Positions 29,765 through 61,628 of a DNA stretch of 64,000 bases are shown in pieces (the stretch's first letter is position 1; each line of letters begins with the position of its first letter). A program made the position numbers and the translations under genes. Location: assembly GCF_003334385.1 (NCBI RefSeq), contig NZ_QOWN01000012.1, one strand, 5' to 3'. The notes under the pieces were generated by a model. It was not told where the DNA came from. It did no database searches and saw nothing but the letters and a program-made list of their open reading frames with translations. Source of the DNA: Escherichia coli (GTDB lineage: Bacteria > Pseudomonadota > Gammaproteobacteria > Enterobacterales > Enterobacteriaceae).

Positions 29765-29785
29765 GTAATTTTCTCATATTGATAT
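29765..29785 (+). promoter_or_regulatory. shared purine-cluster motif copy 1 (GTAATTTTCTCATATTGATAT)
   Basis: The core CTCATATTGATAT is identical to 54811..54823 and matches 12 of 13 positions at 60627..60639 (minus strand). Confidence 0.45.
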
Positions 29786-30012
29786 TTCATTAATCATTCT
29801 GGCATGTCGCACTCTCGCATTTAATCGTTTTTATCTGGATAGCGCTCTTTTGATCGGCAATGTTGAAATAATGAAAGCGGCATAGATTGAGGGGCAATAA
29901 TTTGAACTCAGTCGCAAAATTATAATTAAAACGGTCATGCTACCTAATATATGCCCGTTTATTGCATCGCGAAATTTGAGAAGACATAACTCATTAAATG
30001 AAAGGGATGCAA

Positions 30013-45886: not shown

Positions 45887-46657
45887 GTGAAAAGTATAGT
45901 TGACCCATCGGCATTAGTCATTGATTTAGGTGCGCAGAAACGTCCCACTGTGATTTCTGTTGTTGGTGCTGGGGGGAAAACCAGCTTGCTTTTTTGGCTG
46001 GCAGAACTGCTCCAGGCTAGCGGCAGGCGTGTGTTAATCACGACGACGACACATATGTTTATGCCAACGTCTCACTGGCCCGTGGTTTTCTGTCGTGATC
46101 CCGCCATGCTTCCTCATGCGTCTCTTACATCCCCCATTTCATTTTGTTTTCACAGTTGGAAAGCGAACCAGGGAAAAGTGCAGGGATTTACGCCAGAAGC
46201 GATTGATGCACTGGTGCAACGACCAGAGTGTGACGTAATTCTCATTGAAGCAGATGGCTCGCGTGGAATGCCGTTAAAAGCGCCTGATGAGCACGAACCT
46301 TGCATACCCAAAAGCAGTTGCTGCGTGATTGCTGTGATGGGAGGACATACTTTGGGCGCGAAAGTGAGCACAGAAAATGTCCATCGCTGGTCGCAGTTTG
46401 CTGATATTACCGGGTTAACACCTGATGCAACCTTGCAACTGAGCGATCTCGTTGCGCTGGTTCGCCACCCTCAGGGGGCGTTTAAAAACGTACCGCAAGG
46501 TTGTCGGCGAGTCTGGTTCATTAACCGTTTTTCTCAATGTGAGAATGCGATTGCACAAAGCGAGCTCCTTCAACCGCTGCAACAACACGACGTAGAGGCA
46601 ATCTGGCTGGGCGATATACAAGAACATCCTGCAATCGCGCGCAGATTTGTGAATTAG
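45887..46657 (+). CDS. yqeC: selenium-dependent Mo-hydroxylase accessory protein YqeC (256 aa)
   Basis: GTG start. P-loop-like VVGAGGKTS. Recognised. Confidence 0.88.
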   Translation: MKSIVDPSALVIDLGAQKRPTVISVVGAGGKTSLLFWLAELLQASGRRVLITTTTHMFMPTSHWPVVFCRDPAMLPHASLTSPISFCFHSWKANQGKVQGFTPEAIDALVQRPECDVILIEADGSRGMPLKAPDEHEPCIPKSSCCVIAVMGGHTLGAKVSTENVHRWSQFADITGLTPDATLQLSDLVALVRHPQGAFKNVPQGCRRVWFINRFSQCENAIAQSELLQPLQQHDVEAIWLGDIQEHPAIARRFVN

Positions 46658-46704: not shown

Positions 46705-48330
46705 ATGAATATTTTCACAGAGGCTGCAAAACTCGAAGAGCAAAATTGTCCGTTTGCTATGGCGCAAATTGTTGATAGCCGAGGCTCGACTCCCCGCCAT
46801 TCTGCACAAATGTTAGTGCGCGCCGATGGTTCTATCGTCGGTACAATTGGTGGCGGAATGGTTGAGCGGAAGGTGATTGAAGAGTCGCTTCAGGCATTGC
46901 AGGAACGTAAGCCGCGATTATTCCATGGACGTATGGCTCGTAACGGTGCGGATGCTGTCGGGTCAGATTGTGGAGGTGCAATGTCAGTATTTATCAGCGT
47001 CCATGGTATGCGTCCACGTCTGGTGTTGATTGGCGCGGGGCATGTCAACCGGGCGATAGCCCAGAGTGCGGCGCTATTAGGATTTGATATTGCCGTTGCT
47101 GATATTTATCGCGAAAGCCTCAATCCTGAACTATTCCCACCATCAACCACGCTTCTCCATGCTGAGTCGTTTGGTGCGGCAGTGGAAGCACTGGATATTC
47201 GCCCTGATAATTTTGTCCTGATTGCCACGAATAATCAGGATCGTGAAGCCCTCGACAAACTCATTGAACAGCCCATTGCATGGTTGGGGTTGCTGGCAAG
47301 TCGTCGCAAGGTTCAGCTTTTCCTGCGTCAATTGCGTGAGAAAGGCGTGGCTGAAGAACATATTGCCCGTTTACATGCGCCCGTTGGTTACAACATAGGT
47401 GCGGAAACGCCGCAGGAGATCGCCATCAGCGTGCTGGCAGAAATATTACAGGTGAAAAATAACGCGCCGGGTGGGCTGATGATGAAACCTTCTCATCCTT
47501 CCGGACACCAGCTGGTGGTGATTCGCGGTGCGGGAGATATCGCCAGTGGTGTGGCGCTACGTCTGTATCATGCGGGTTTTAAAGTGATCATGCTGGAAGT
47601 GGAAAAACCGACAGTGATTCGTTGTACCGTGGCGTTTGCCCAGGCCGTGTTCGATGGCGAAATGACGGTCGAAGGCGTCACTGCTCGCCTGGCAACCAGC
47701 TCTGCGGAAGCGATGAAACTTACCGAACGCGGATTCATTCCTGTGATGGTAGATCCCGCCTGTTCATTGCTTGATGAACTGAAACCGCTTTGCGTGGTGG
47801 ACGCTATTCTGGCGAAACAGAATTTGGGAACGCGGGCAGATATGGCACCAGTAACAATCGCGCTTGGGCCGGGCTTTACTGCTGGGAAGGATTGTCATGC
47901 GGTAATTGAAACAAATCGCGGGCACTGGCTCGGTCAGGTGATTTACTCTGGTTGTGCGCAGGAGAATACCGGTGTTCCTGGCAATATTATGGGGCATACC
48001 ACCCGACGGGTGATCCGTGCTCCTGCTGCAGGCATTATGCGATCCAACGTGAAATTAGGCGATCTGGTGAAAGAGGGCGATGTGATTGCCTGGATTGGTG
48101 AGCATGAAATTAAAGCACCGTTGACGGGGATGGTGCGTGGCTTGTTGAACGACGGCCTGGCAGTGGTTGGTGGTTTTAAAATTGGTGATATCGATCCTCG
48201 TGGTGAAACCGCTGATTTCACCAGCGTTTCTGATAAAGCCCGGGCGATTGGCGGCGGCGTACTTGAGGCGTTAATGATGTTGATGCATCAGGGCGTGAAA
48301 GCGACAAAAGAAGTGCTGGAAGTGGCTTAA
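46705..48330 (+). CDS. yqeB: XdhC/CoxI-like Mo-hydroxylase maturation protein YqeB (541 aa)
   Basis: 541-aa ORF MNIFTEAAKLEEQNCPFAMAQIVDSRGSTPRH (XdhC N-domain plus Rossmann domains). Recognised. Confidence 0.9.
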   Translation: MNIFTEAAKLEEQNCPFAMAQIVDSRGSTPRHSAQMLVRADGSIVGTIGGGMVERKVIEESLQALQERKPRLFHGRMARNGADAVGSDCGGAMSVFISVHGMRPRLVLIGAGHVNRAIAQSAALLGFDIAVADIYRESLNPELFPPSTTLLHAESFGAAVEALDIRPDNFVLIATNNQDREALDKLIEQPIAWLGLLASRRKVQLFLRQLREKGVAEEHIARLHAPVGYNIGAETPQEIAISVLAEILQVKNNAPGGLMMKPSHPSGHQLVVIRGAGDIASGVALRLYHAGFKVIMLEVEKPTVIRCTVAFAQAVFDGEMTVEGVTARLATSSAEAMKLTERGFIPVMVDPACSLLDELKPLCVVDAILAKQNLGTRADMAPVTIALGPGFTAGKDCHAVIETNRGHWLGQVIYSGCAQENTGVPGNIMGHTTRRVIRAPAAGIMRSNVKLGDLVKEGDVIAWIGEHEIKAPLTGMVRGLLNDGLAVVGGFKIGDIDPRGETADFTSVSDKARAIGGGVLEALMMLMHQGVKATKEVLEVA

Positions 48331-54592: not shown

Positions 54593-54608
54593 AACAATAA
54601 GTGTGCCA
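54593..54608 (-). promoter_or_regulatory. weak sigma54-like element upstream of ygeW
   Basis: Minus strand TGGCAC-ACTTA-TTGTT. The -24 element is perfect, but the -12 element reads GT where GC is expected. Confidence 0.25.
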
Positions 54609-54804
54609 GAATTATCCGCGCGGCTGCAAAAGACTAATTTGACGGATAATGTGTGGGGTTGATCACAAATTGATGCCAGCTTCTGGTTGTTTGTAAAATA
54701 CGAAAACGTTTGGCTTTTTTTATCGCGTTATTTATTTGCTGCTAAGTATCAGAAATAAGATAAAGGGGCAGGCTATCTCTCTTCAGTTTGATAAACTCAC
54801 CGCC

Positions 54805-54823
54805 GTAATTCTCATATTGATAT
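54805..54823 (+). promoter_or_regulatory. shared purine-cluster motif copy 2 (GTAATTCTCATATTGATAT)
   Basis: Identical 13-mer core to 29773..29785. A second TGATAT lies 13 nt downstream. Confidence 0.45.
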
Positions 54824-54977
54824 AGAAATGTGATATCTCTTCCATAATTTCATTAGAAAATGATAAAAATCTTATGTTTTTATCAAAGCCAATTTCGCCT
54901 GAGTTAATATCATCATGATCTGTGAACCATCAACGTCTTCAATGATCGACTTTTAAGTAAGTCTGGAAGGTAAAGCT

Positions 54978-56756
54978 ATGGAGCTTGCTACTACGCAGTC
55001 AGTATTGATGCAAATTCAACCGACAATTCAGCGTTTTGCCAGAATGCTTGCCAGCGTTTTGCAGCTTGAGGTTGAGATCGTTGATGAAAACTTGTGTCGC
55101 GTTGCCGGAACGGGCGCGTATGGGAAGTTTCTTGGTCGCCAGTTGAGCGGCAACTCACGCCTGCTCCGCCACGTCCTGGAAACGAAAACTGAAAAAGTTG
55201 TGACACAGTCTCGCTTCGATCCCCTTTGCGAAGGTTGCGATAGTAAAGAAAATTGCCGCGAAAAAGCATTTCTGGGTACGCCTGTCATTTTACAGGATCG
55301 TTGTGTTGGGGTGATAAGTTTGATTGCCGTTACCCACGAGCAACAAGAGCATATCAGTGATAATTTACGCGAATTTTCTGATTATGTTCGCCATATATCC
55401 ACCATTTTTGTTTCGAAACTTCTGGAGGATCAGGGGCCAGGAGATAACATCAGTAAAATATTTGCGACCATGATCGATAATATGGATCAGGGCGTATTAG
55501 TTGTAGATGATGAAAATCGGGTTCAGTTTGTTAATCAGACTGCCTTAAAAACACTTGGTGTTGTGCAAAATAATATTATTGGGAAACCTATCCGTTTCAG
55601 ACCATTAACATTTGAGAGTAATTTTACCCATGGACATATGCAGCATATTGTTTCATGGGACGATAAAAGTGAATTAATCATTGGTCAATTGCATAACATT
55701 CAGGGCCGACAATTATTTTTAATGGCGTTTCACCAATCGCATACCAGTTTTTCTGTAGCAAATGCACCTGATGAACCGCATATTGAACAATTGGTTGGCG
55801 AGTGCCGTGTTATGCGGCAATTAAAACGACTCATTAGCCGTATTGCACCCAGCCCATCCAGCGTTATGGTGGTTGGTGAAAGCGGCACGGGTAAAGAAGT
55901 CGTCGCCCGTGCAATCCATAAGTTGAGCGGAAGACGGAATAAACCCTTTATTGCTATCAACTGTGCCGCGATTCCGGAGCAGCTTCTGGAGAGCGAACTG
56001 TTCGGTTATGTTAAAGGTGCATTTACTGGCGCTTCTGCCAACGGTAAAACAGGGTTGATTCAGGCGGCGAATACGGGCACGCTGTTTCTCGATGAAATAG
56101 GTGATATGCCATTAATGTTGCAGGCTAAATTACTGCGCGCTATTGAGGCACGTGAAATTCTGCCGATTGGTGCCAGTAGCCCAATACAAGTCGACATTCG
56201 CATCATTTCTGCAACTAATCAGAATTTGGCCCAGTTCATTGCCGAAGGTAAATTCCGCGAAGATCTCTTCTACCGACTTAATGTTATCCCGATAACTCTG
56301 CCACCGCTGCGTGAACGTCAGGAAGATATTGAACTATTGGTGCATTACTTTTTACATCTGCATACCCGTCGTCTGGGATCGGTTTATCCTGGCATTGCTC
56401 CCGATGTCGTCGAAATATTGCGTAAGCATCGTTGGCCCGGAAACCTGCGCGAGTTAAGCAATTTGATGGAATATCTGGTTAACGTGGTTCCTTCAGGTGA
56501 AGTTATCGACAGCACGCTATTGCCGCCAAATCTGCTGAATAATGGCACAACGGAGCAAAGTGATGTAACAGAGGTCAGTGAGGCGCACCTGTCACTCGAT
56601 GATGCGGGCGGCACGGCGCTGGAGGAGATGGAAAAGCAAATGATCCGCGAGGCGCTTTCACGTCATAACAGCAAGAAGCAAGTTGCTGATGAACTGGGCA
56701 TCGGCATTGCTACGCTCTATCGCAAGATTAAGAAATATGAGTTGTTAAACACATAA
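54978..56756 (+). CDS. ygeV: sigma54-dependent transcriptional activator YgeV (592 aa)
   Basis: AAA+ core with Walker A GESGTGKE and the sigma54-contact motif GAFTGA, plus a C-terminal HTH (IGIATLYRKIKKY). Recognised. Confidence 0.95.
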   Translation: MELATTQSVLMQIQPTIQRFARMLASVLQLEVEIVDENLCRVAGTGAYGKFLGRQLSGNSRLLRHVLETKTEKVVTQSRFDPLCEGCDSKENCREKAFLGTPVILQDRCVGVISLIAVTHEQQEHISDNLREFSDYVRHISTIFVSKLLEDQGPGDNISKIFATMIDNMDQGVLVVDDENRVQFVNQTALKTLGVVQNNIIGKPIRFRPLTFESNFTHGHMQHIVSWDDKSELIIGQLHNIQGRQLFLMAFHQSHTSFSVANAPDEPHIEQLVGECRVMRQLKRLISRIAPSPSSVMVVGESGTGKEVVARAIHKLSGRRNKPFIAINCAAIPEQLLESELFGYVKGAFTGASANGKTGLIQAANTGTLFLDEIGDMPLMLQAKLLRAIEAREILPIGASSPIQVDIRIISATNQNLAQFIAEGKFREDLFYRLNVIPITLPPLRERQEDIELLVHYFLHLHTRRLGSVYPGIAPDVVEILRKHRWPGNLRELSNLMEYLVNVVPSGEVIDSTLLPPNLLNNGTTEQSDVTEVSEAHLSLDDAGGTALEEMEKQMIREALSRHNSKKQVADELGIGIATLYRKIKKYELLNT

Positions 56757-56795: not shown

Positions 56796-57275
56796 TTACT
56801 TCGTTTTCTCGCAATCCAGAACTGTATTTACAATCATCTGATACCCCGTGCAGCGACAAAGATTTCCCGCCAGTCCGCGACGAATTTCCGTAATGGTTAA
56901 TGGCTTCTCGCGTGGTTTCGCCAGCATTGCCGTGGTAGCCATAATCAGGCCAGGCGTACAAAACCCGCACTGCACTGCGCCGGATTTCGCATAAGCCTGC
57001 TGAACATGAGAAAGTTTTCCGCCTTTCGCTTCACCTTCCAGCGTGCGGATCTCTTTTCCTTCAGCCCAGGCGGCAAGGTATAAGCAACTGTCTATTGCTG
57101 TGCCGTCGACCAACACCGTACAGGCACCACATTCACCCACGCAGCACCCTTGTTTGACACTTAGCAGTCCTTGTTCGCGGAGTAATTCCGAGAGCGGCGT
57201 GCCTGGTGCGGCGTGAAGCTGAAAAGGCATCCCGTTAATGGTGCATTCGATGGTAATTGTTTCGCTGTGATTCAT
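56796..57275 (-). CDS. xdhC: xanthine dehydrogenase Fe-S subunit (159 aa)
   Basis: Intact 2x[2Fe-2S] ligands: [12 protein letters not shown] and [14 protein letters not shown]. Confidence 0.95.
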
Positions 57276-58150
57276 TGCAATTTTCCCCCCGCCGCGGCGA
57301 CGGCTTCGCTAATCACTTTTTTGGTCATCGTCTGGATGAGATGCAGACGAAACTCTTTACTGGCCCGCCATGAAGAACGCGGGGCGACATCTTGCAGGAC
57401 AGATTCGCTGATAGCTTCCAGCGTTTGCAGGTTTAATGGCGCATTTTGTGCAGTCTGTTCGGCATGTTGGCAGCGAATCGGCGTTGGCGCGGCAACACCA
57501 AATGCCAGGCGTAATTCGCTGAAATTGCCGTTATCCAGTCGGCAATGTGCGGCGCAGCCAATCGTTGAAATATCCATTGCGTCGCGCATGGCATATTTAA
57601 AATGCGCGCTGCCCGCGTGTTCTTTCGGCTGTGGCGGAAAATGAAAGGCGACGAGGATTTCGTCATGCTCAAGAGACACTTTGCCCGGCCCGGTGTGAAA
57701 GCCATTAATCGGGACGAAACGAACACCGCGCGGGGAGTGGATCTCCAGTTTCGCGTCATAAATTAGCGTTGGCGTGGCAGAATCTGCGCTGGTGGCACCG
57801 TTGCAAATATTTCCACCGTAGGTAGCGACGTTACGGATCTGCGGTCCAGCAATGGACGTGGCCGCAGCACATAACGCCGGGAGATGACGTTGAGTTATAG
57901 GATCTTCTATTAGCTGGGTAAATGTCGTTGCAGAGCCGATACGTAGCGAGCCATCTTCCGCCAGCGTAATTCCCCGCAGCTCCGCCAGATTATGAATATC
58001 AACAATATGGCGATAACGGTCATTGTGATGGTGGAGCTGAATCAGTACGTCAGTGCCACCGGCGAGCAGTTTGGCCTGCGGGTTGTCAGCCAGCAGGTTG
58101 ATGGCATCGGCAAGGGTTGCTGCGCGATGGTAAGAAGCAAAATCAAACAT
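57272..58150 (-). CDS. xdhB: xanthine dehydrogenase FAD-binding subunit (292 aa)
   Basis: 292-aa ORF with [16 protein letters not shown] overlap with xdhC. Confidence 0.95.
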
Positions 58151-58160
58151 GATGTTATCC

Positions 58161-60419
58161 TCAAATCAATCCTGCCAGATGGAACTCTTCATATAACCGT
58201 TTTGGCGTCAGCGGCAGTGTATTGATTGCAACACCGGTAGCCATCTTCACCGCGTTACGAATAGCAGCGGCAACAGGAATTATTGGTGGCTCACCCAGTG
58301 ACTTATGTCCGTATGCGGATTGCGGCTCATTGATTTCGACGAACGCGCTTTCCAGTTGTGGCAGATCCGGCATGGTCGGCATTTTGTAATCCAGCAGATT
58401 GGGGTTACGGACCACGCCGCTTTTAGCATCGATGATCATCTCTTCAAATAGCGCCCAGCCAATGCCCATTCCCATTCCGCCGTGTACCTGACCTTCTGCC
58501 AGCAGTGGATTAAGAATATGCCCTGAATCATGAACGTTGAGGATGCGGTTGATGGTGACTTTGCACAGCGCAATATCGACCGTCAGATCAACAAAGGTAC
58601 AGCCAAACGCCGGTGGGTTAGTGGTGGTTTTGATGGAGCTTTCAGCAGAGAGCTGCCCGCCGCGTTCAGGGTGGTAGAAAGCGTCCATCGCCAAATCTTT
58701 TAACGACATTAACGGCTCTTCCGGTCGTTCAACCAGCACGATATGGCCTTTTATCAGGGTCAGATTCATCGCTGACTGATGTAGCATGACTGCGGCGTGA
58801 GCGATGATTTTCTCTTTTAATAATAGTGCCGCACTGCGCAGCGCAGGCGCGGCAACATAGCTCTGGCGTGAGGCAAATGCGCCGGGATCGAACGGCGTAA
58901 CGTCGGTATCTTGAGTTGAAATAACGCGAACGTCGCTGACCGGAACCCCCACGGTTTCTGCCACCATTTGCGAGAAGACGGTGTCGGCACCCTGACCGAT
59001 TTCCGTCGCGCCGCTTTGCACGTTGATGGTTCCATCCTGATTCATCAGAAGGCGCGCGCCTGCTATTTCTACGCCGACAGGCCAGGTGTTAGAGGTGTAG
59101 CTAAAACAGGCGACGCCAACGCCGCGGCGCAAATTGCCTTGCTGGTTCTGGCATTCTGCACGGCGTTTTTCCCATTCAAAGATTTTCCGGCCTTTTTCAA
59201 GACACTCCGGCAACCCTGCGCTGTAAATACGTTTGCCCGTGAGCGGATTAGCATCTCCTTCGCGGGCGGCGTTGCGTAAACGAATTTCAACAGGATCAAT
59301 ACCTAACGCTGTCGCGGCGTCATCAAGCATAGACTCAACGGCAAATACGACTTGTGGCGCGCCATAACCACGCATCGCACCAGCCGAGGGGAGGTTGGTA
59401 TAGCAGGTCTTTGAACTGTAAGCGTAGGCACAACGAGGATAAAGGTAAGCGACTTTATTCCCCCCCGCAGAAGCGATGGAGTGCCCGTGAGATGCATAAG
59501 CGCCGGTGTTAGACAGAACATCCAGACTATAACCTTTCAATGTTCCGTCGCGGTTCACGCCCATTTGCCCGTCAATGGTAAAAGCGTGGCGGGTACGGGT
59601 TGCGAGGAAACACTCTTCACGGCTAAGGGAAACTTTCACCGGAATGCCGCCAAGCTTGCTGGTCAGGAATGCCGCCATTGGCTCTTCCAGTACATCCTGT
59701 TTATTACCAAAACCGCCACCGACAAATGGTTTGATGACTCGTACGCATGACCAGGGAATATCCAGCGCCTGACCAACCACGCGGCGAACAATGTGCGGGA
59801 TCTGGGTGCTGGAAACGATGGTAATTCGCGAGTCATCCTCCATCCACGCCAGCGATGTTACGCTTTCCATGTGACAATGTTGAATAACGGGGGTCTGATA
59901 GTGCCCCTGTACCTGGTAGTCGGCGGCATCGATTGTTTGTTGGACATTACCCGTCGACATCGTGCTTTGTTTCAGTAAATTGCCACCGTTATGGATTGGT
60001 GCAGCGTCTTCTGCCAGCGCCGCTTCTGGCGTGGTGATAACGGGTAATTCTTGCCACTCAATGCTGACCAATTGCGCCGCTTTTTCTGCCGTGAGTTCAT
60101 CGCGGGCCACGACGATGGCAACGGCGTCACCATGATGACGAACATGGCGAGTTAGCAGTGCGCGATCGGCGGTATCGCGCTTGTTTTCGTCAAGTGTCCA
60201 GGCATGCCCAGCTGTAGCGAATGGAATATCAGGCACATCTTCCCAGGTAAAAATCGCCAGTACGCCCGGCAAACTTCTGGCTTGTTCATCATTAATACTT
60301 ACGGCATAACCATGTGCGATAGGGCTACGTACATATTTCGCATAACACATGCCCGCCATAACATAATCGTCAGTATATCGTGCCCGCCCGGTGACCTTAG
60401 CAATGGCATCGACGCGCAT
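58161..60419 (-). CDS. xdhA: xanthine dehydrogenase molybdenum-binding subunit (752 aa)
   Basis: ORF 58161..60458, recognised start MRVDAIAKVTGRARYTDDY. Motif GGGFGNK. Confidence 0.94.
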   Translation of the reverse strand: MRVDAIAKVTGRARYTDDYVMAGMCYAKYVRSPIAHGYAVSINDEQARSLPGVLAIFTWEDVPDIPFATAGHAWTLDENKRDTADRALLTRHVRHHGDAVAIVVARDELTAEKAAQLVSIEWQELPVITTPEAALAEDAAPIHNGGNLLKQSTMSTGNVQQTIDAADYQVQGHYQTPVIQHCHMESVTSLAWMEDDSRITIVSSTQIPHIVRRVVGQALDIPWSCVRVIKPFVGGGFGNKQDVLEEPMAAFLTSKLGGIPVKVSLSREECFLATRTRHAFTIDGQMGVNRDGTLKGYSLDVLSNTGAYASHGHSIASAGGNKVAYLYPRCAYAYSSKTCYTNLPSAGAMRGYGAPQVVFAVESMLDDAATALGIDPVEIRLRNAAREGDANPLTGKRIYSAGLPECLEKGRKIFEWEKRRAECQNQQGNLRRGVGVACFSYTSNTWPVGVEIAGARLLMNQDGTINVQSGATEIGQGADTVFSQMVAETVGVPVSDVRVISTQDTDVTPFDPGAFASRQSYVAAPALRSAALLLKEKIIAHAAVMLHQSAMNLTLIKGHIVLVERPEEPLMSLKDLAMDAFYHPERGGQLSAESSIKTTTNPPAFGCTFVDLTVDIALCKVTINRILNVHDSGHILNPLLAEGQVHGGMGMGIGWALFEEMIIDAKSGVVRNPNLLDYKMPTMPDLPQLESAFVEINEPQSAYGHKSLGEPPIIPVAAAIRNAVKMATGVAINTLPLTPKRLYEEFHLAGLI

Positions 60420-60513
60420 GCATGATTCACCCGTAGCGGTTGCTTCCCGCGCTTCCATAGAAATCCCCTCGATTTGAACATTTGGTTCTTATGGCAAAGA
60501 TTTAGTCTAAGCA

Positions 60514-60529
60514 GGCAAGATTTACGCCA
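60514..60529 (-). promoter_or_regulatory. candidate sigma54 (-24/-12) promoter for xdhABC
   Basis: Minus strand TGGCGT-AAATC-TTGCC, 95 nt upstream of the xdhA ATG. Confidence 0.5.
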
Positions 60530-60619
60530 GAAACGACGATAAGCGTTAGGGGAGGTAGGAAGTGTGATGACGTTAAAAAAACACAGATATGATACGAAAC
60601 AGGACTCTGAATAGGGGCA

Positions 60620-60639
60620 GTGATACGTATCAATATGAG
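60620..60639 (-). promoter_or_regulatory. shared purine-cluster motif copy 3 (CTCATATTGATAC) overlapping an FNR/CRP-family-like palindrome
   Basis: Minus strand reads CTCATATTGATACGTATCAC. TTGAT-ACGT-ATCAC matches 9 of 10 positions of TTGAT-N4-ATCAA. Confidence 0.4.
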
Positions 60640-60872
60640 TGGCGATAAAATCAATGTGATAAATTGGGATTATTACGCATCAGGATGGGAAATAGGGTAA
60701 AAAGTCAGGAAGTTCGATACCTCTACAGCGAATATTTTGCTGATGATACTTCCCTTTGCCAAATGAAATTAACCTCTTTCTCTATTACCACGTTTTTCCA
60801 GAAGCAAGAGATTGGGTATCAAGAGGCTGGCTGCTATGATAAGGCGTCTTGTTTTTTAAGCGAGGAAAGATT

Positions 60873-61628
60873 TTGAGTGCGGGACGCCTGAATAAAAAAT
60901 CTCTGGGTATCGTGATGTTGTTATCGGTTGGACTGCTTTTGGCGGGCTGTTCGGGTAGCAAATCATCCGATACAGGAACGTATTCCGGCTCCGTTTACAC
61001 CGTGAAACGGGGGGATACGCTATATCGTATTTCGCGCACCACGGGAACCAGCGTAAAAGAACTGGCGCGACTGAACGGCATTTCCCCCCCTTACACCATT
61101 GAAGTTGGTCAGAAACTAAAACTGGGTGGGGCGAAAAGTAGCAGTATTACACGTAAATCAACCGCCAAATCAACGACCAAAACCGCATCGGTTACACCGT
61201 CATCAGCGGTACCGAAATCATCCTGGCCGCCAGTAGGGCAACGTTGTTGGTTATGGCCAACGACAGGGAAAGTTATCATGCCGTATTCGACAGCAGATGG
61301 CGGCAATAAAGGGATTGATATCTCAGCTCCACGGGGTACACCTATTTACGCCGCGGGTGCAGGAAAGGTGGTGTATGTGGGCAACCAGCTGCGTGGCTAC
61401 GGTAATCTCATCATGATTAAACACAGTGAAGATTACATTACGGCTTACGCCCATAATGACACGATGCTGGTAAATAATGGGCAAAGCGTGAAGGCTGGGC
61501 AAAAAATCGCCACTATGGGGAGCACGGATGCGGCATCTGTTCGCCTGCATTTCCAGATTCGTTACCGTGCAACGGCAATTGATCCGCTACGTTACTTGCC
61601 GCCTCAGGGCAGCAAGCCAAAATGCTGA
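60873..61628 (+). CDS. ygeR: LysM + M23-peptidase-domain lipoprotein YgeR (251 aa)
   Basis: TTG start inside track ORF 60849..61628. Lipobox LLAGC, a LysM domain (YTVKRGDTLYRISR) and an M23 body. Recognised. Confidence 0.9.
   Translation: MSAGRLNKKSLGIVMLLSVGLLLAGCSGSKSSDTGTYSGSVYTVKRGDTLYRISRTTGTSVKELARLNGISPPYTIEVGQKLKLGGAKSSSITRKSTAKSTTKTASVTPSSAVPKSSWPPVGQRCWLWPTTGKVIMPYSTADGGNKGIDISAPRGTPIYAAGAGKVVYVGNQLRGYGNLIMIKHSEDYITAYAHNDTMLVNNGQSVKAGQKIATMGSTDAASVRLHFQIRYRATAIDPLRYLPPQGSKPKC

Follow-up and report, generated by a model that had tools for sequence, protein, structure and literature searches.

Upstream of xdhA in Escherichia coli, two copies of the word ATTGAT stand two helical turns apart, one of them embedded in a palindrome that resembles a binding site for FNR, and the question raised by this arrangement is which regulator the repeats serve. 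We consider the divergent intergenic region between ygeR and xdhA in a 64,000-nucleotide stretch of an E. coli genome (contig NZ_QOWN01000012.1 of assembly GCF_003334385.1; hereafter the window, with positions counted from its first letter), and in particular the 453 bp from 60420 to 60872, which are 100% identical to K-12 BW25113. As we lay out below, this region is an enhancer-dependent sigma-54 promoter of xdhABC, which was already known, and the ATTGAT repeats are probably two operators for the activator YgeV, which upon binding would loop over to that promoter and activate it. The E. coli genes under the control of YgeV (also named IsrR) form a cluster now implicated in the anaerobic degradation of uric acid and purines by gut bacteria, a process with relevance to gout, and we found no description of YgeV's DNA target in the searchable literature. 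The elements of the promoter region are listed here, with distances relative to a predicted xdhA transcription start at approximately 60503 and with UAS standing for upstream activating sequence.

60649-60661, minus strand: UAS2, the distal YgeV-type operator TATCA-CAT-TGATT, centred on 60655 (about -152) and holding the second ATTGAT
60628-60640, minus strand: UAS1, the proximal YgeV-type operator aCTCA-TAT-TGATA, centred on 60634 (about -131) and holding the first ATTGAT
60621-60632: the perfect 12-bp palindrome TGATA-CG-TATCA, core of the FNR-like site at 60620-60633
60590-60594, minus strand: an orphan TATCA half-site within CGTATCAT
60575-60581, minus strand: a tract of seven T (about -72 to -78), between the operators and the promoter
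60514-60530, minus strand: the -24/-12 element CTGGCGTAAATCTTGCC of xdhABC, with its GG at 60528-60527 and its GC at 60516-60515

The promoter itself sets the frame for everything upstream of it. A preliminary description of this DNA, made from the letters alone, had pointed to a good -24/-12 element reading TGGCGTAAATCTTGCC from 60529 to 60514 on the minus strand. String and position are both correct, but the epithet depends on the kind of evidence considered: by consensus alone the element is not good, as it retains GG-N10-GC but carries three mismatches to TGGCAC-N5-TTGCW, while even matches with at most two mismatches occur in the window at chance frequency (49 observed vs 43 expected). 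Experiment has nevertheless mapped a sigma-54 site here. CTGGCGTAAATCTTGCC is peak OS29, assigned to xdhA, in the sigma-54 chromatin immunoprecipitation sequencing (ChIP-seq) data of Bonocora 2015, with a position-specific scoring matrix score of 10.9, a fold above threshold of 11, an EcoCyc flag as experimentally confirmed, and a transcription start 84 nt from the legacy ATG; Zhao 2010 gives the same box sequence for xdhA and reports sigma-54-dependent expression, 4.9-fold up on sigma-54 overexpression. The proposal of a sigma-54 promoter for xdhA, RpoN occupancy included, thus agrees with published data. The GG and GC dinucleotides are unchanged in seven E. coli alleles, and a homologous box, CTGGCGTATTTATTGCT, which shares the unusual TGGCGTA of the E. 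coli -24 box, lies upstream of xdhA in a metagenomic enterobacterial relative whose XdhA is 71% identical to that of E. coli (locus L092). In the Serratia group, the corresponding xdhA(B) boxes are CTGGCATAACCATTGCT (L088, Serratia rhizosphaerae), CTGGCATATTCCCTGCT (L091) and CTGGCATATTCCATGCT (L093), the last two being loci related to L088 with the same fused xdhAB gene order. A scan for sigma-70 promoters returned one match (60762 to 60734, vs 1.6 expected), which is no evidence for such a promoter, and a CRP-like half-match, TGTGATGACGTTAAAA (60563-60578, two mismatches), is weak and was judged to be a chance occurrence.

The repeats upstream of this promoter had been described as tandem ATTGAT half-sites, the first within CTCATATTGATAC (60639 to 60627, minus strand) and the cores at 60634 to 60629 and 60655 to 60650, exactly 21 bp apart. 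The strings, the positions and the spacing hold, and an independent repeat search recovered the same pair (family D3, ATCAATATGA and ATCAATGTGA, spacing 21). What changes is their character: both ATTGAT cores are the right arms of 11-13 bp palindromes of the form [A/C]TCA-N3-TGAT(A), so that the proposed activator sites two helical turns apart stand, but as whole palindromes rather than as simple half-sites. UAS2 contains a perfect ATCA-N3-TGAT core. The same repeat search (D2/I1) also placed the orphan TATCA at 60590-60594, 31 bp downstream of the CGTATCAC half-site, where it overlaps the only -10-like hexamer in the region, TATCAT (60594 to 60589); it may be a regulatory half-site. A 24-nt direct repeat of 71% identity (60593-60616 and 60674-60697, reading CCCTATTCAGAGTCCTGTTTCGTA and CCCTATTTCCCATCCTGATGCGTA on the minus strand, spacing 81 bp) flanks the block of two operators; this may be chance, as two-copy families often are.

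The window contains further sigma-54 sites mapped by ChIP in Bonocora 2015, and the operator seen at xdhA recurs near them. The boxes and the operator-like palindromes associated with them are as follows.

54593-54609, minus strand: ygeW sigma-54 box (OS30)
54807-54825, plus strand: ygeW operator AATTCTCATATTGATATAG, between ygeV and ygeW and 207 bp upstream of the ygeW box
44957-44973, minus strand: ygfK sigma-54 box (OS31)
45139-45157, minus strand: ygfK operator, which includes the perfect 15-bp palindrome TTATCATAATGATAA and lies 175 bp upstream of the ygfK box
29950-29966, plus strand: ygfT sigma-54 box (OS32)
29769-29787, plus strand: ygfT operator TTTTCTCATATTGATATTT, 172 bp upstream of the ygfT box
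46288-46304, plus strand: sigma-54 box inside yqeC (PyqeC), serving yqeB
46529-46547: operator TTTTCTCAATGTGAGAATG inside yqeC, with the yqeB ATG at 46705

The 12-mer CTCATATTGATA, which spans most of UAS1, is present in exactly three places when both strands of the 64 kb are searched: at 60639 to 60628 (xdhA), 54811-54822 (ygeV/ygeW intergenic) and 29773-29784 (ygfT). Each of these copies is followed, approximately 100-200 bp downstream, by a sigma-54 promoter mapped by ChIP. It is the longest word common to at least three of the four regions upstream of sigma-54 boxes, and a shared word of 12 arose in none of 2000 shuffles and in two of 2000 draws of random segments; a further word, ATATTGATA, is common to all four regions. 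The motif that contains ATTGAT is far beyond chance.

These observations bear directly on the reading under which the repeats would be chance AT-rich words, or sites for an unrelated factor such as Fur, with no tie to the sigma-54 promoter. That reading draws on an H-NS ChIP peak that covers the region (Myers 2013), where AT-rich words are common. The palindrome at ygfK, TTATCATAATGATAA, also presumably resembles part of a GATAAT-based Fur box. However, the arrangement of arms differs, being ATCA-N3-TGAT here and, in what we take to be the Fur box, TGAT-N1-ATCA, and on this ground we rejected a Fur site. Together with the exact 12-mer common to three sigma-54 promoter regions, the co-occurrence of the sites with YgeV-like genes and sigma-54 boxes across phyla, the clean negative controls, and the recovery of the sites by a matrix built independently from Clostridia (all described below) leave this reading very improbable.

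Within E. coli, the two operators vary little. In an alignment of seven alleles, a 46-bp block containing both is invariant, with substitutions directly on both sides, and the T7 tract is invariant as well. A 48-bp operator block is found exactly in 5336 of 5426 E. coli genomes, whereas flanks of equal length are exact in 2725 and 4433. The alignment cannot separate a YgeV reading from an FNR reading of the region, since both sites fall in the same invariant block.

We turn to YgeV and its relatives. YgeV has Sigma54_activat (E = 7.8e-71), AAA_lid_14, HTH_8 and PAS domains, and the YgeV iModulon comprises xdhABC, ygeWXY, ygfK and ygfT, with ygfT expression reported to be lower in a ygeV mutant. 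With E. coli YgeV as the query, a homologue search yielded nothing but E. coli proteins of 99-100% identity, and a genome scan with full-length YgeV gave no Enterobacteriaceae among the matches listed; using Photobacterium YgeW as the query instead led to Serratia, Klebsiella, Aeromonas, Shewanella and Vibrio, and seven more gamma-proteobacterial loci were reached through YgeW. Among the matches listed in the genome scan, six loci encode full-length YgeV-like proteins (57-33% identity), four of them syntenic with ygeW/X/Y, hyuA, xdhABC or purine permeases. As a negative control we used 74 loci of paralogous bacterial enhancer-binding proteins, which are AAA+-only matches among the matches listed. 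The operator pattern is enriched in the six YgeV-like loci (23 vs 4.0 expected) and in the window (14 vs 1.6 expected), and shows no enrichment in the 74 control loci (24 vs 28.3 expected in 1.21 Mb).

In the orthologue loci the operators again lie 90-250 bp upstream of sigma-54 boxes. In Photobacterium, ATATCAATATGATAA precedes a ygeW-type box by approximately 200 bp; in a Tissierellaceae genome, three ATCANTTTGATAA sites stand ahead of TGGCATGACTCTTGCA; in Peptostreptococcus, ATCAAAATGAG and ATCAATATGAT, at a spacing of exactly 21 bp, lie upstream of TGGCACGTAAATTGCA; and a Clostridium locus has ATATCAAAATGATAA upstream of TGGCACATTTATTGCT. Klebsiella, Serratia, Aeromonas and Shewanella likewise have operators upstream of ygeW. 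At xdhA itself, the xdhAB promoters of L088, L091 and L093 each carry two operators 19-21 bp apart, about 100-130 bp upstream of the sigma-54 box, and L092 has CTCTCAATATGAGAG approximately 103 bp upstream of CTGGCGTATTTATTGCT. E. coli, Photobacterium, Tissierellaceae and Clostridium share one and the same recognition helix, LGIGIATLYRKIKK, from which those of the paralogues differ. In L092, isolated TTATCA half-sites (such as AATTATCATTCTG, AATTATCAATACAG and GAATTTATCAGG), five or six in number, are also scattered over the 200 bp that precede the main operator (2390-2560), which hints that arrays of half-sites contribute to the recruitment of YgeV.

The same palindrome has been predicted elsewhere under another name. 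In a comparative-genomic survey, Nie, Dong & Yang 2019 (BMC Genomics 20:565) defined a group of enhancer-binding proteins called DioR, with function given as 'Unknown', and predicted its UAS; the predicted targets are dpaL(=ygeX)-pyrC-argE, pbuX, ygeW-ygfK-ssnA-ygeY, yqeC-ygfJ-yqeB-xdhC and hyp-xdhABC, a gene content equal to that of the E. coli cluster. The sites in Table S3 of that study include ATTTATCATAATGATAAGG, ATTTATCAAAATGATATAT (upstream of xdhABC) and, from C. difficile, AATTCTCGTATTGATAAAA. We built a matrix from 24 of these Clostridial sites only and scanned the E. coli window with it, which placed the ygfT operator first (22.4 bits), that of ygeW second (19.2), the yqeC-internal operator third (17.2), that of ygfK fifth (15.7) and UAS2 of xdhA sixth (13.9). 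Seventeen bases of the ygfK operator, TTATCATAATGATAAGG, are identical to a C. botulinum ygeW-ygfK DioR site, and the core of UAS1, CTCA-TAT-TGATA, matches CTCA/TGAT hybrid DioR variants such as the C. difficile AATTCTCGTATTGATAAAA. One further match, TTTTATGATATTGAAAATA at 3068-3086 within a plus-strand open reading frame (2534-3766), scored 15.8 bits with no sigma-54 context and is probably a chance occurrence in coding sequence.

The two systems are alike in their palindrome (TTATCA-N3-TGATAA, with TTCTCA..TGAGAA variants), in its placement 100-250 bp upstream of a sigma-54 box, in the use of multiple sites (15-20 bp apart), in their targets (ygeW, ygfK, ssnA, ygeY, dpaL/ygeX, yqeB/yqeC/ygfJ, xdhABC and purine permeases), and in the architecture of the regulator, whose helix-turn-helix is identical in the Clostridium locus that we examined. 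They differ in that Nie 2019 covers Clostridiales only and mentions neither YgeV nor E. coli, and in that the E. coli sites have G+C-richer flanks, favour the CTCA/TGAT hybrid form, and come with two extras, the TGATA-N2-TATCA junction and one site that falls within the coding part of yqeC; both sets are known from sequence alone. The E. coli YgeV operators would therefore appear to be an addition to a motif family predicted in Clostridia, linking an E. coli regulator that still goes by a y-gene name to a regulon predicted in that group.

What, then, of the FNR-like palindrome? The preliminary description had noted that TTGATACGTATCAC, from 60633 to 60620 on the minus strand, matches nine of the ten positions of the FNR consensus, which is correct, and had taken this as a hint of anaerobic input, with a second sigma-70 promoter or competition at one site as possible routes. 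On this rival explanation the palindrome would be a functional FNR site that either activates such a second promoter or competes with YgeV for UAS1. Besides the match itself, several points speak for it: the -10-like TATCAT downstream, a pathway that runs anaerobically, a 9/10 FNR-like site in the Photobacterium ygeV/ygeW region, and a second-hand statement, made in a paper that cites the microarray of Salmon 2003, that FNR regulates xdhABC, although a microarray effect could be indirect. In its match and its anaerobic setting the site does resemble a class II FNR site (TTGAT-N4-ATCAA at -41.5, with sigma-70).

The match is nevertheless at the level of chance, the window containing five sites with at most one mismatch vs 2.9 expected, a number reached in 16 of 100 shuffles. 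Nor does occupancy data point to FNR: Tables S5, S7 and S9 of Myers 2013 list no FNR ChIP peak at 2997-2998 kb for either the wild type or the hns/stpA mutant, and Table S6 has no predicted site there, while the anaerobic sigma-70 peaks of the same study lie nearby at 2997935 (the start of ygeR/actS) and 3000642 (inside the xdh operon), with none at the implied position of approximately 2998200. The FNR data available were obtained in glucose minimal medium, a condition under which the region is covered by H-NS. The TATCAT hexamer is 32.5 bp from the centre of the site, vs approximately 29.5 expected, and is thus 3 bp off the class II register; neither a -35 element nor a promoter call accompanies it. 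A site with at most one mismatch is present in none of the four non-E. coli xdhA promoters (L088, L091, L092 and L093) and in no other E. coli promoter of the regulon. The same palindrome does occur in a Clostridium locus. The xdhA site thus departs from a class II FNR promoter in reported in vivo occupancy, apparently in sigma-70 spacing, and in conservation among orthologous promoters, and the suggestion of anaerobic input through FNR is not supported.

It also departs in being overlapped, and explained, by YgeV-type half-sites. The left arm of TGATA-CG-TATCA is the right arm of UAS1, and its right arm is an extra TATCA two bases on, so that the FNR-like palindrome arises here from the TTGATA of the proximal operator and one more half-site two bases beyond it. 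Across the four copies of TGATA-N2-TATCA that we found (see below), the outer T/A positions that FNR would demand match in three of eight cases, whereas positions 6 and 9 (A and T), which are not FNR positions, match in eight of eight; what is conserved fits TGATA/TATCA and not TTGA/TCAA. The resemblance to an FNR site is probably a by-product of the YgeV operators, and a functional FNR site here seems to us quite unlikely. A tempting but unsupported annotation can accordingly be set aside.

There is a different way in which the junction might matter. TGATA-N2-TATCA (60621-60632) might be a conserved element separate from the two operators, either a third, differently arranged place for YgeV subunits of the oligomer to dock or a site where another regulator reads TGATA/TATCA half-sites head-to-head. 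Exact copies number four in the window and ten orthologue loci, vs 0.39 expected, and all four are in regulatory positions (E. coli xdhA, Photobacterium ygeV/ygeW, Aeromonas ygeV/ygeW, and a Clostridium permease gene); the other spacings between TGATA and TATCA from 0 to 7 give zero to two matches each, and the control loci contain three copies vs 1.33 expected in 1.2 Mb. In C. difficile, moreover, the DioR sites at -247 and -232, which are 15 bp apart, create the same junction, TGATA-N2-TCTCG. Against this stand the small number of instances, only four, the absence of the element from the xdhA-type promoters of L088, L091, L093 and L092, and the richness of these regions in TGATA/TATCA words, which makes a chance juxtaposition likelier than base composition implies. 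Judging from these sequences, we regard a separate element as rather unlikely, and the recurrence as a lead, not a result. TGATA-N2-TATCA may instead lie where two operators meet at a spacing of 15 bp, one of them reduced to a half-site. Were it to constitute a second operator class, which we consider rather doubtful, it might provide an alternative, head-to-head mode of docking by which the stoichiometry of YgeV in its oligomer is set, or a site for a co-regulator, possibly a CRP/FNR-family protein, through which a second signal such as anaerobiosis or carbon status enters at the enhancer itself.

Returning to two YgeV operators as the preferred reading, the following sequence of events would account for the arrangement at xdhA. 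Sigma-54 RNA polymerase would wait in a closed complex on CTGGCGTAAATCTTGCC (60530 to 60514), with its start near 60503. The activator would be YgeV, a protein with PAS, AAA+ and Fis-type helix-turn-helix domains encoded 3.7 kb away, whose dimers would bind the two T[A/C]TCA-N3-TGA[T/G]A palindromes at approximately -131 and -152, on the same face of the helix given their 21-bp spacing. The bound dimers would assemble into an active AAA+ oligomer that loops over to the promoter, perhaps aided by the T7 tract, and ATP hydrolysis would then open the closed complex. YgeV as the binding protein, its oligomerisation and the looping are drawn here from the paradigm of bacterial enhancer-binding proteins and from comparative genomics, and the extra half-sites may have an accessory role. 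Looping assisted by IHF finds no support in the sequence, since no IHF consensus (at most one mismatch) lies between UAS and promoter at any of the four promoters; a bend intrinsic to the T7 tract may substitute for IHF.

The closest familiar parallel is the NtrC enhancer at glnAp2, where two dimer palindromes on one helical face, 100-150 bp upstream of the -24/-12 element, carry an AAA+ oligomer that loops the DNA; there the operator is TGCACC-N5-GGTGCA, the spacing is 32 bp, and extra weak sites or half-sites lie nearby. The xdhA promoter shares the paired palindromes on one face upstream of a -24/-12 promoter and the additional half-sites close by. It differs in the operator sequence and in the spacing (21 bp rather than 32), as well as in the regulator: NtrC is a phosphorylated response regulator, while YgeV has an N-terminal region and a PAS domain and no receiver domain. 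With the promoter itself already known, a palindromic enhancer at -130/-150 was to be expected, and its identification is a refinement rather than a surprise.

Several considerations weigh against this reading. In the searchable literature we found no electrophoretic mobility shift assay, footprint or ChIP for YgeV/IsrR or DioR, so that the assignment to YgeV rests on comparative genomics and co-expression; nor did we find there a relevant paper that prints the operator strings of E. coli. Under its newer name, IsrR, YgeV has also been tied to indole and to regulation of the enterocyte-effacement locus (LEE), leaving its signal unsettled. UAS1 falls outside the top 25 matches of the Clostridial matrix, its flanks being G+C-rich where that matrix is AT-rich; the low score follows from those flanks, and the support for UAS1 comes from the exact sharing of its 12-mer. 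The genomes that enter the E. coli counts are not phylogenetically independent of one another. Within the family, specificity has shifted, as the Desulfotomaculum locus (L004) has no ATCA-N3-TGAT but different repeats. Finally, the yqeB operator lies approximately 240 bp downstream of the mapped promoter, unlike a simple upstream-enhancer picture.

Two of these exceptions merit description in their own right. In L004 (11760-11840), whose YgeV orthologue is 35% identical, an altered recognition helix, LGISLATLYRKT, goes together with TCTCAA..TCGAGAAT repeats upstream of TGGTACAAAATTTGCT, which suggests that operator and recognition helix have co-varied. The yqeC-internal site of E. coli is a perfect TTCTCA-N3-TGAGAA palindrome (TTCTCAATGTGAGAA, 46531-46545). 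Homologous sites are found in Klebsiella aerogenes (L087, 17974-17992), also within yqeC, and in Serratia rhizosphaerae (L088, 17137-17155), where the site is intergenic and upstream of a yqeB-like gene of the XdhC family. Bonocora 2015 reported the yqeC-internal promoter, which is experimentally confirmed, to be induced by nitrogen limitation, with no obvious link to the function of YqeB; the palindrome suggests that YgeV activates yqeB from a downstream enhancer, and makes YgeV a candidate activator for this promoter.

With the same operator at ygeW, ygfK, ygfT and probably yqeB, one regulator may switch on the whole cluster for purine and uric-acid catabolism, and T[A/C]TCA-N3-TGA[T/G]A can be offered as an operator consensus with five target promoters in the window. 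The palindrome ATCATGATGATA (54905-54923), which has an exact ATCA-N3-TGAT core and precedes the ygeV ATG (54978) by approximately 60-70 bp, may serve autoregulation of YgeV; dioR itself is among the predicted DioR targets (Nie 2019). The genes of the cluster lie in the window in reverse orientation, and include ygeWXY-hyuA-yqeA, yqeBC, ygfJ, ygfK-ssnA-ygfM-xdhD and ygfT/uacT. The genes closest to the region discussed here, with two candidate start codons of xdhA, are the following.

60849-61628, plus strand: ygeR (actS), divergent from xdhA across the shared intergenic region
56796-60458, minus strand: xdhABC
54978-56756, plus strand: ygeV
60456-60458, minus strand: probable true xdhA ATG, preceded by the Shine-Dalgarno sequence GAGGGGA
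60417-60419, minus strand: legacy K-12 xdhA ATG (MRVDA..., 752 aa)

A search of 60300-61000 against Rfam gave no match at E <= 1. The choice between the two start codons affects the geometry of the promoter. RefSeq annotates the xdhA start at 60458 in six genomes, and xdhA orthologues have 11-15 residues N-terminal to the conserved RVDA motif; these annotations and N-termini, with the Shine-Dalgarno sequence, favour the ATG at 60458, and the legacy K-12 start is probably wrong. The distance of 95 nt from xdhA ATG to -24/-12 box given in the preliminary description is right for the legacy start at 60419, but for the favoured ATG the distance to the -12 box is 56 nt, and the 5' untranslated region from the predicted transcription start shortens from 84 to approximately 45 nt.

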